Of a stretch of DNA of 32,000 bases, positions 13,193 through 13,440 are shown piece by piece. The position numbers were made by a program, and so were the translations under genes. The notes under the pieces were generated by a model that saw nothing but the letters and a program-made list of their open reading frames with translations, had not been told where the DNA came from and ran no database searches. Within the stretch, counting starts at the first letter, position 1. The number at the start of each line of letters is the position of its first letter. The DNA is from an uncultured Methylococcaceae bacterium (GTDB lineage Bacteria; Pseudomonadota; Gammaproteobacteria; Methylococcales; UBA1147), in the NCBI GenBank assembly GCA_964619885.1, contig CAZUGA010000015.1, forward strand, positions 59,510 to 91,509. The letters are read 5' to 3'.

Positions 13193-13440
13193 TCAATCTC
13201 TAAAGTAATCATGGCGTTTTGCTCCGTCGTGTTGCTTGGATTGCAAGCAACACTTTTTAAAAGCGGCGCCCGGAACCGCAAACGCAAGGATCATTGCGCC
13301 CAAGTTTTTCCACCAGTTGTTTATCGCCATGTACGACTCTGTTACCTCGTTTGACATGGGTTTCGGATGGATAACCTTTTCGACGTTTGCTGGTCACTTC
13401 AAAAGGAATATTCCTGGGTAATACTGTTTGATTTTTGCAT
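13193..13440 (-). pseudogene. Small SEC-C-motif protein gene split over three frames (frameshifted, or recoded by +1 shifts)
   Basis: Not in the ORF track because each piece is under 60 aa.
- Frame 0: GGAGG plus 6 nt, then ATG (13440), giving [13 protein letters not shown] and TGA.
- +1 frame: (E)[46 protein letters not shown], then TAA.
- +2 frame: KKCCLQSKQHDGAKRHDYFRD, then TGA at 13195-13193, 3 nt before the rtcB ATG.

Together [14 protein letters not shown]|KKCC reconstitutes a canonical SEC-C motif. Confidence 0.6.

Follow-up and report, generated by a model that had tools for sequence, protein, structure and literature searches.

How does a gene whose reading frame is broken at two places yield a protein, if it yields one at all? 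This question is raised by a mini-gene in a stretch of 32,000 nucleotides (nt) from an uncultured Methylococcaceae bacterium (GenBank assembly GCA_964619885.1, contig CAZUGA010000015.1, positions 59,510 to 91,509 of the forward strand), hereafter called the window. The mini-gene lies just upstream of rtcB and would encode a protein with a SEC-C metal-binding motif, which is split across two frames. The initial annotation, made from the letters of the window, had proposed two programmed +1 frameshifts at UUU_U sites giving an 81-residue SEC-C protein. This proposal is strongly supported by orthologues that keep both interruptions, by the selection acting on each segment in its own frame, and by an invariant UUU_Y (Y, pyrimidine). 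From these comparisons, we consider it quite likely that recoding sites, conserved and kept by selection, account for the interruptions, best explained by programmed +1 frameshifting through a slip of P-site tRNA-Phe from UUU to UUY.

All features of the mini-gene, as well as rtcB, are on the minus strand. A Shine-Dalgarno sequence GGAGG (13451-13447) is found 6 nt 5′ of the ATG (13440-13438) of a leader in frame A (13440-13399), in which 12 further codons are followed by a UGA at 13401-13399. The start region reads acGGAGGtgcatcATG CAA AAA TCA AAC AGT ATT ACC CAG GAA TAT TCC TTT TGA A, and the Shine-Dalgarno string GGAGGTGCATCATG is near-identical in distant homologues. An equal Shine-Dalgarno sequence and spacing were found in 71 of 85 homologues, including the one in Desulfatibacillum alkenivorans (L166; surveyed loci are denoted by L numbers). 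Shift site 1 (13404-13401) is the UUU_U in UCC UUU UGA A, with the UUU at 13404-13402. Segment B, in the first +1 frame (13400-13260), runs for 47 codons from the GAA at 13400 to the UUU at 13262-13260; it is the conserved core, opens with EVTSKRRKG and carries the first of the two Cys pairs that make up the motif. Shift site 2 (13262-13259) is the UUU_U in CGC UUU UAA A, where the UAA of the old frame occupies 13259-13257. Segment C, in the second +1 frame (13258-13193), then adds 21 codons (KKCCLQSKQHDGAKRHDYFRD) and a TGA at 13195-13193; it opens with KKCCLQSK, ends with FRD and contributes the second Cys pair and a conserved DGxxRxxYF tail. Between this stop and the ATG of rtcB (13189), there are only 3 nt (ACT).

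The downstream frames have little to start from. Frame B has no ATG, GTG or TTG upstream of its Phe back to a TAA at 13460, and its sole start codon is a GTG at 13397, which lies within the conserved region and 1 nt past the UGA; a start codon is absent from frame C. The initial annotation had been exact on the frames and on all the coordinates (minus strand, leader, frame B, and frame C), and it had rightly named this GTG as the only start of the SEC-C frame.

The three segments fused across the two sites give a basic product of 81 residues. When compared with the Pfam SEC-C model (PF02810), it matches positions 1-18 of 19 with 36.6 bits (cut-off 20.4), where frame B alone matches positions 1-13 only, with 24.4 bits. 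The full C-x-C...C-C motif is, in other words, found above the curated cut-off in the fused product, and the zinc-binding peptides of YchJ and SecA (GSGKKFKKCC) align with this product through the junction. The SEC-C domains of SecA, YchJ, and YecA bind metal, plus ribosomes or SecB. Like these SEC-C/SecA-type proteins (SecA C-terminus, YchJ, YecA), the fused product has the canonical GRNDPCxCGSGxxFKKCC but, unlike them, the mini-gene product is 60-80 residues long and mostly stand-alone. To our knowledge, no other SEC-C protein requires recoding.

Outside the motif, little could be recognized. No match was found in Pfam or NCBIfam models for the N-terminal 45 residues of the fused product, and the NCBIfam models for YchJ, YecA, and PBPRA1643 matched only in the 20-residue motif, with 14-36 bits against cut-offs of 68-267. 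In the NCBIfam and PADLOC searches, only the SEC-C motif was matched, and NCBIfam holds no model for the mini-gene family. The AlphaFold2 model, built from an 18-sequence alignment, reached a predicted local distance difference test score (pLDDT) of 58 and was confident for the SEC-C zinc knuckle only.

A first explanation for the broken frame would be a homopolymer error in sequencing or assembly at the T4 runs, as both junctions lie in short T runs beside A runs. We regard this as next to impossible. The 371-nt region 13520-13150 is identical across three separately assembled contigs (ENA and JGI records), and many orthologues have TTT C at the junctions, with no homopolymer extension. The same structure is also present in isolate genomes. 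Both cultured isolates carry site 1, and Arenicella carries site 2 as well: Arenicella sp. 4NH20-0111 (L081) reads TCC TTT TGA G at site 1 and AGG TTT TAA G at site 2, and Desulfatibacillum alkenivorans (L166) reads GGAGGTGCATC ATG ... AGG TTT TGA A. The remaining genes of the window are intact, with long open reading frames (ORFs) and full-length Pfam matches (RtcB 1-426 of 426, nSTAND1 1-378 of 379, MlaE, an ABC transporter, and others); therefore, the assembly is not riddled with homopolymer indels. On the strength of these intact genes, the three identical contigs and the two isolates, an error-ridden assembly was rejected, and with it the sequencing error that the initial annotation had held to be a simpler alternative.

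The mini-gene is present in eight of the 80 surveyed loci encoding an RtcB 68-87% identical to that of the window. In all eight of these rtcB-linked mini-genes, both +1 shifts are required and fall at identical residues; two of these loci are cut at site 1, yet both +1 junctions are visible. Such recurrence goes far beyond chance. The alignment of orthologous loci suggested by the initial annotation hence found the interruptions conserved throughout this set. Site 1 is TCC TTT TGA or TCC TTT CGA in these orthologues, and site 2 is TTT TAA or TTT CAA. Their leader peptides differ (MKKISQEYSF, MCKFKDKDQSF, MSKYNLINQEYSF, and others). In L001, L002, L003, L005, L006, and L090, the mini-gene is directly upstream of rtcB.

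To survey the wider family, metagenomes were scanned with patterns from the central segment only (LxEKLGRND and KRR[KR]G[YF]PSE), which gave 80 loci. Because the seeds lie in the central segment only, the seeding was blind to the junctions, and any bias from ranking the matches against the fused query would be towards intact genes. The metagenome and genome loci together make a survey set of 85 distinct genes from loci with a G+C content of 35-70%. Site 1 was scored over these 85 genes, and the states of site 2 and of a third site described below were counted over all 87 genes found. At site 1, a +1 shift at TTT_Y after a Shine-Dalgarno sequence (mostly GGAGG) and a start codon is required in 71 of the 85 genes, with ATG as the start in 69 and GTG in 2. 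The distance from the start to the shift UUU is 9-14 codons in 69 of these 71, with modes at 12 and 11 and outliers at 16 and 18. The TTT is followed by C or T in 71 of 71, and the next codon of the old frame is TGA (29 genes), CGA (29), CAC (5), TAC (3) or, in one gene each, CAG, CAT, CAA, TTG, and CTA. The base at -3 is T in 90% of the genes, and the E-site codon is usually UGC, UCC or UUU. The only two genes with an in-frame Shine-Dalgarno sequence and ATG, L095 and L123, both lack TTT_Y (GTT CGT and CTT CGA, respectively) and constitute a natural control.

At site 2, TTT is followed by C or T in 54 of 54 distinct shifted homologues, and the next codon of the old frame is CAA in 45, TAA in 8, and TAG in one. 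The T4 run and in-frame stop that the initial annotation had singled out are consequently conserved in part: UUU followed by a pyrimidine is kept, but the stop is not, with about half of the genes having a sense codon at site 1 and most having CAA at site 2. Counting by class, 45 of the 87 genes are shifted only at site 2 (TTT CAA, TTT TAA or TTT TAG, between GSGxxF and KxCC), 27 are in frame at site 2 and shifted at site 3, ~10 codons later, and 6 are shifted at both. One gene (L082) is shifted at site 2 and then shows a compensating shift back, and four have an unclassifiable tail. The remaining four genes are shifted at neither downstream site, and all of them have TTT_Y at site 1; three need the site-1 +1 shift, and the fourth (L086) has TTT CGA with no identifiable start.

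Most site-3 junctions are TTT TGA or TTT CGA before a conserved DG. A downstream site CTT CGG, between CCL and G..DG, is used in L089, L095, L096, L097, and L117; that of L098 is CTT CGA, and that of L138 is ATT TGA C, which as AUU UGA C resembles the prfB site. Homologues with an uninterrupted site 2 almost always keep site 1 and another +1 site ~10 codons downstream, and in these the shift has been moved, not removed. The initial annotation had considered that uninterrupted orthologues would exclude programmed recoding; site 2 is indeed in frame in some relatives (TTC AAG or TTT AAA), but nearly always with the +1 site ~10 codons on and site 1. Among the 76 fully classified distinct genes, the number of required shifts is zero in none, one in 5, two in 65, and three in 6. 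Because every one of the 75 fully classified relatives, which come from widely differing bacteria, needs at least one frame shift, the interruption looks built in and not like a defect. A gene and its nearest neighbour share the site 2/3 class in 56 of 81 cases, where ~37% would be expected by chance; therefore, the site states are inherited and not random. A protein search with the fused product gave 1375 protein clusters, and sites 2 and 3 are both in frame in only 20 of the best 120 protein-database matches to the fused query.

The conservation of a disruption leads to the question of whether the disrupted frames are still under selection. We analyzed 34 window-type genes in an ungapped alignment, with a mean nucleotide identity of 66% (range 55-98%). 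For segment B read in frame B, the Shannon entropy at codon positions 1, 2, and 3 was 0.45, 0.31, and 1.49, and for segment C read in frame C, it was 0.88, 0.65, and 1.38; read unshifted, segment C gave 1.38, 0.88, and 0.65. The variability of the third position hence tracks frame B and then frame C, and the entropy is zero at all three T's of both shift codons. Phe codons provide a further comparison: in-frame Phe codons that are followed by a pyrimidine and are not shift sites are TTC in 19 of 20 cases, while the shift-site Phe is TTT at every scored Phe-type site, with a few genes using CUU_C or AUU_U instead. TTC would be unable to re-pair in the +1 frame. Taken on these substitution patterns, each of the three segments is under purifying selection in its own frame. 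The mini-gene, accordingly, shows what is expected of a +1 gene: a shift that diverged orthologues retain and that is flanked on either side by sequence under purifying selection, a +1-frame continuation that lacks a usable downstream start (as seen both for the window gene and for 71 of the 85 homologues), and a P-site tRNA that can re-pair, with UUU_U at both sites of the window.

These results bear on a second explanation, in which an intact SEC-C ancestor would have suffered two independent 1-nt insertions and lost its expression, leaving a decaying pseudogene. Homologues with site 2 in frame (TTC AAG, TTT AAA) do exist, and annotation pipelines skip or truncate the gene. However, the same residues are interrupted in genes that are only 55-66% identical in DNA, each shifted frame is under purifying selection, a required shift is missing in 0 of the 76 fully classified relatives, and the strong Shine-Dalgarno sequence and ATG are conserved. 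Neither the lineage-specific disruption nor the relaxed selection of a pseudogene was found, making this explanation extremely improbable. The single T insertion considered by the initial annotation is contradicted by the same conserved and selected interruptions.

If the gene is real and selected, its parts might still be translated without any frameshift. The 13-codon ORF would then be an independent regulatory upstream ORF, followed by termination and reinitiation at GTG 13397 to make a frame-B protein of 46 residues without the second Cys pair, and frame C would be untranslated. In the window, that GTG is only 1 nt past the UGA, L002 and L003 have an ATG (FERMSKRR) just past the stop, and frame B alone exceeds the Pfam SEC-C cut-off (24.4 bits). 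Yet most homologues have no frame-B start past the leader stop, site 1 holds no stop but a sense codon (such as CGA) in about half of them, and F-E-x-T-S is conserved upstream of any such start. Moreover, the T before TTY is invariant though silent in frame B, and frame C, without a start, shows coding periodicity and the conserved KxCC...DGxxRxxYF. Independent translation of the segments is, on this evidence, very unlikely.

Another possibility is that the frame is corrected in the RNA by the loss of one pyrimidine per site, through RNA polymerase slippage or through endonucleolytic cleavage and re-ligation, conceivably by RtcB; ordinary triplet decoding would then yield the 81-residue protein. 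An rtcB gene is indeed found ≤2.5 kb away in 9 of the 80 metagenome loci, far above chance, and directly downstream in the window clade, and a subgroup with a T7 run at site 1 (see below) could use transcriptional slippage. However, an rtcB gene is missing from the neighbourhood of the majority of family members, the T runs (T3C or T4) fall far short of known RNA-polymerase slippage sites, and the invariant is at the codon level (Phe UUU in the old frame, UUY in the new one), as tRNA re-pairing predicts. We also know of no single-nucleotide-deletion editing in bacteria, which we counted against this explanation. We infer that the ribosome, and not an RNA-level event, makes the correction, and hold the latter to be most unlikely. 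Two related candidates were rejected: transcriptional slippage, as the T runs are too short, and phase variation, for the same reason and because the design is conserved across phyla.

Programmed +1 frameshifting would proceed as follows. Ribosomes would initiate at the strong GGAGG/ATG (13440) and read the 13-codon leader, and the peptidyl-tRNA-Phe on UUU 13404-13402 in the P site would slip +1 so that the next codon is GAA (Glu). After 47 codons, the same slip at UUU 13262-13260 would bring AAA (Lys) as the next codon. Only the doubly shifted product would contain the complete set of four zinc ligands together with the conserved tail at the C terminus, whereas translation without a shift would give a 13-residue peptide, and a shift at site 1 alone would give a 60-residue product with the first Cys pair only. 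The sole invariant of the sites is an old-frame UUU followed by a pyrimidine, coding for Phe in both frames (UUU, then UUY); such invariance is understandable because P-site slippage of tRNA-Phe (anticodon GAA) predicts Phe in both frames, and after the slip, UUC gives a Watson-Crick third pair.

The A-site stop codon, on the other hand, does not appear to be essential to the design because many homologues have CGA, CAC or UAC at site 1, or CAA at site 2. Slow A-site codons are present in the window, as UGA and UAA, but in the family, sense codons are equally frequent or commoner (29 TGA, 29 CGA, and 13 others at site 1; 45 CAA vs 9 TAA or TAG at site 2). The output would be the product of the site efficiencies, with very low basal expression and a steep response to weaker frame maintenance at UUU_Y, which could come from slow A-site decoding, tRNA-Phe hypomodification, ribosome damage or collisions. 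Two regularities may matter for the mechanism, namely the frequent T at -3 of site 1 and the narrow range of leader lengths. The latter would leave room for another ribosome to load upstream of one that pauses at site 1; a push by collision is speculation.

Several observations weigh against this explanation. No internal Shine-Dalgarno sequence was found at a fixed short distance from the shift sites, and the weak G-richness before sites 2 and 3 stems from the codons for GSGRR and SG. No conserved RNA structure was found either, as RNAalifold on the 34 genes gave no pairs at either site; cis-stimulators in the form of a prfB-type internal Shine-Dalgarno sequence or a downstream structure are, in sum, not seen. 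With sense codons in the A site (CAA, CAC), each shift might, from what is known of UUU_Y sites, be only a few percent efficient, and two in series would therefore give very little product. Furthermore, in a T7-run subgroup of six genes, the start is in the other frame, and a -1 or +2 shift is needed. Finally, the L082 gene needs its compensating shift back.

The two exceptional gene types deserve a closer description. In the T7 subgroup (L108, L111, L112, L124, and L157), site 1 reads CCA TTT TTT TCG AGA, and the frame of the Shine-Dalgarno sequence and ATG is +1 to the core. To reach the core frame, these genes would have to shift by -1, slip +1 twice in a row or gain a U during transcription, hence another recoding solution at the same position. 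Site 1 and site 2, the latter as TTT CAA, are both found in L082 (1080-1120), on a high-GC metagenome contig, and the conserved tail GRYDGVERDEYFRE of this gene is back in frame B. A 1-nt loss after KRCC is implied, which could be a real variant without the CC pair or an assembly error. The protein P0111 resembles L082 at the protein level.

Although no structure is shared by the family, a 10-bp hairpin is found in the window at 13253-13229 (GUGUUGCUUG-caauc-CAAGCAACAC), after a five-A spacer (13258-13254) 3′ of the site-2 UUUU. Its predicted energy is -17.9 kcal/mol (z = -3.3). L002 has a comparable hairpin, but L001, L005, L006, and L081 do not; hence, it is at most a local enhancer and no family trait. 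Read on the plus strand, 13229-13253 forms a hairpin followed by TTTTT that scores as intrinsic-terminator-like, inside the minus-strand gene. This terminator-like site might halt antisense transcription or be a by-product of the A5/T4 context.

We then compared the mini-gene with known recoding systems. One of the closest is prfB, for which UUU_U replaces CUU_U as the shift site in a minority of species (PMC5009743). In both cases, a short first ORF follows a strong start (25 codons in prfB; 13 including the shift Phe in the window, and mostly 10-15 in the family), a P-site tRNA slips +1 on NUU_U, and the shift is conserved across phyla; in the window, the old frame also ends with a UGA right after the shift codon of site 1. 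Unlike prfB, however, the mini-gene has no internal Shine-Dalgarno sequence 3 nt upstream of the shift codon, its stop is dispensable in the family (CGA, CAA, CAC, and others), and it needs two, sometimes three, shifts instead of one. It also has no evident autoregulatory logic because its product is not a release factor.

A high-level +1 shift at UUU UAU, near the start of the ORF and with no stop or hungry codon, has been described in Escherichia coli argI (PMC2790909). The shift sites of the mini-gene are likewise UUU plus a pyrimidine, and several members have exactly UUU UAC at site 1. While the argI shift is an unselected error with a non-functional product, the shifted frame of the mini-gene specifies a conserved protein, and its site is kept by selection. 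UUU-pyrimidine sites are reportedly shift-prone, in work attributed to Fu and Parker in 1994 and to Schwartz and Curran in 1997, and the loss of ms2i6A37 is said to raise shifting at such sites, as credited to Urbonavicius and colleagues in 2001.

The Ty1 (CUU AGG C) and antizyme (UCC UGA U) sites are also of the +1 kind, their shift falling on the final sense codon ahead of one that is decoded slowly, and the CUU CGG of L089, L095-L097, and L117 and the CUU CGA of L098 closely resemble the Ty1 heptamer. Both systems have a regulatory read-out, namely the tRNA-Arg level for Ty1 and polyamines for antizyme. They are, however, eukaryotic and single-site, with known stimulators and sensors. More than one +1 shift within one coding sequence occurs in Euplotes and some mitochondria (PMC5009743). 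Those shifts reflect a genome-wide alteration of termination or decoding, as opposed to one bacterial gene family in a window whose other genes are ordinary. No frameshifted SEC-C gene and no rtcB-linked frameshift was found in the literature searched, which included the GeneTack survey (PMC3711429), a recoding review (PMC5009743), pheL (PMC3082878), and FSscan (PMC2790909). The mini-gene would work like a +1 P-site slip of the prfB, argI or Ty1 type, yet it belongs to no described recoding family, and it differs from the described systems in its multiple shifts, its dispensable stop, the lack of a recognisable stimulator, and a product unrelated to autoregulating translation factors.

The same frame structure affects how the mini-gene is recorded. 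The NCBI annotation of Arenicella protein P0120 (L081:3001-3174) starts at an ATA in frame B and ends at the site-2 stop, and that of D. alkenivorans P0002 (L166:2501-2728) starts at an ATC in frame B. For two plasmid records of Candidatus Manganitrophus, the PLSDB gene table, which is incomplete, lists no gene at the homologous stretch. The family is systematically mis-annotated, and it is largely invisible in databases because pipelines truncate the gene, use ATA or ATC starts, or skip it.

Regarding the genomic context, rtcB (11993-13189, 398 residues, full-length Pfam RtcB match) has only a weak Shine-Dalgarno-like AGAGA 5′ of its ATG. Because the frame-C stop is 3 nt from this ATG and no more than that weak signal is present, it is plausible that translation of rtcB is coupled to the shifted frame C in the window lineage. 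No universal operon partner was found: the 60-odd loci are heterogeneous, with Band_7 as the nearest neighbour in 5 and RtcB in 3. A promoter scan upstream of the mini-gene found no sigma-70-like promoter.

Frequently, tRNA genes or arrays are located near the mini-gene loci. A 7-tRNA array (Arg, Asn, Glu, His, Pro, Cys, Gln) is found ~1 kb downstream of rtcB in L006 (5206-6450), five tRNAs lie immediately upstream of the mini-gene in Arenicella (L081:1627-2945), and the window carries tRNA-Gln(UUG) and tRNA-Leu(UAG) at 15103-15264 (minus strand), upstream of the PcfJ-like gene described below. An Rfam scan near the loci returned ordinary tRNAs only, and in the locus flanks, to which ARAGORN was applied, none of the tRNAs had an unusual anticodon loop. 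In L061 (215-250) and L073 (225-262), a tRNA-like minihelix is present ~10-15 nt past the mini-gene stop, with a 7-bp stem around a GGTTCGACTCC T-arm, then AACC(A/G). The stem covaries between the two (CACCGGT/ACCGGTG vs CACCCGT/ACGGGTG), and a real tRNA (Lys or Met) follows ~110 nt on; the minihelix may be a duplicated tRNA 3′ end at an integration site.

Directly upstream of the mini-gene, positions 13515-14954 (minus strand) encode a 479-residue protein with a C-terminal PcfJ-like domain, and the same neighbour is found in L163-L165. Convergent with rtcB, a gene at 7201-11913 (plus strand) encodes a protein of 1570 residues, of which residues 6-174 match the PADLOC candidate PDC-S60 and residues 198-623 an nSTAND1 NTPase, with many WD40 repeats. 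It looks like a STAND-type conflict or defence protein.

The reading frames compared in this study show a widespread, uncurated gene family in which one to three apparent shifts, and usually two, are the rule. Among bacteria, we know of just one programmed +1 frameshift that is both chromosomal and widely conserved, that of prfB. The mini-gene, if its shifts are as proposed, would be the second, in an unrelated and uncharacterised family and with an unusual design: two or three shifts in a gene of ~80 codons, directed by the minimal signal UUU_Y. It would offer a natural test bed for how ribosomes hold the frame at UUU-pyrimidine and for slippage rate as a cellular signal. The recurrent placement of the mini-gene beside rtcB and tRNA genes suggests a link between recoding and the repair of the translation apparatus.

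As a tentative idea, which we consider possible but rather doubtful, the family might be a dedicated sensor of reading-frame maintenance across many bacterial phyla. If this were true, the strongly initiated mRNA would give its protein only after two, or at most three, slips of tRNA-Phe in succession, so that output would follow the second or third power of the global slippage rate. Expression would be switched on by impaired decoding, whether from damaged or hypomodified tRNA, from a cleaved decoding centre or from colliding ribosomes. The logic would be comparable to that of ArfA, which is made only when trans-translation fails. The small, basic, zinc-binding protein would act on ribosomes or RNA, and in lineages like that of the window, the last frame would also deliver ribosomes to rtcB, tying RNA repair to a read-out of translational damage.

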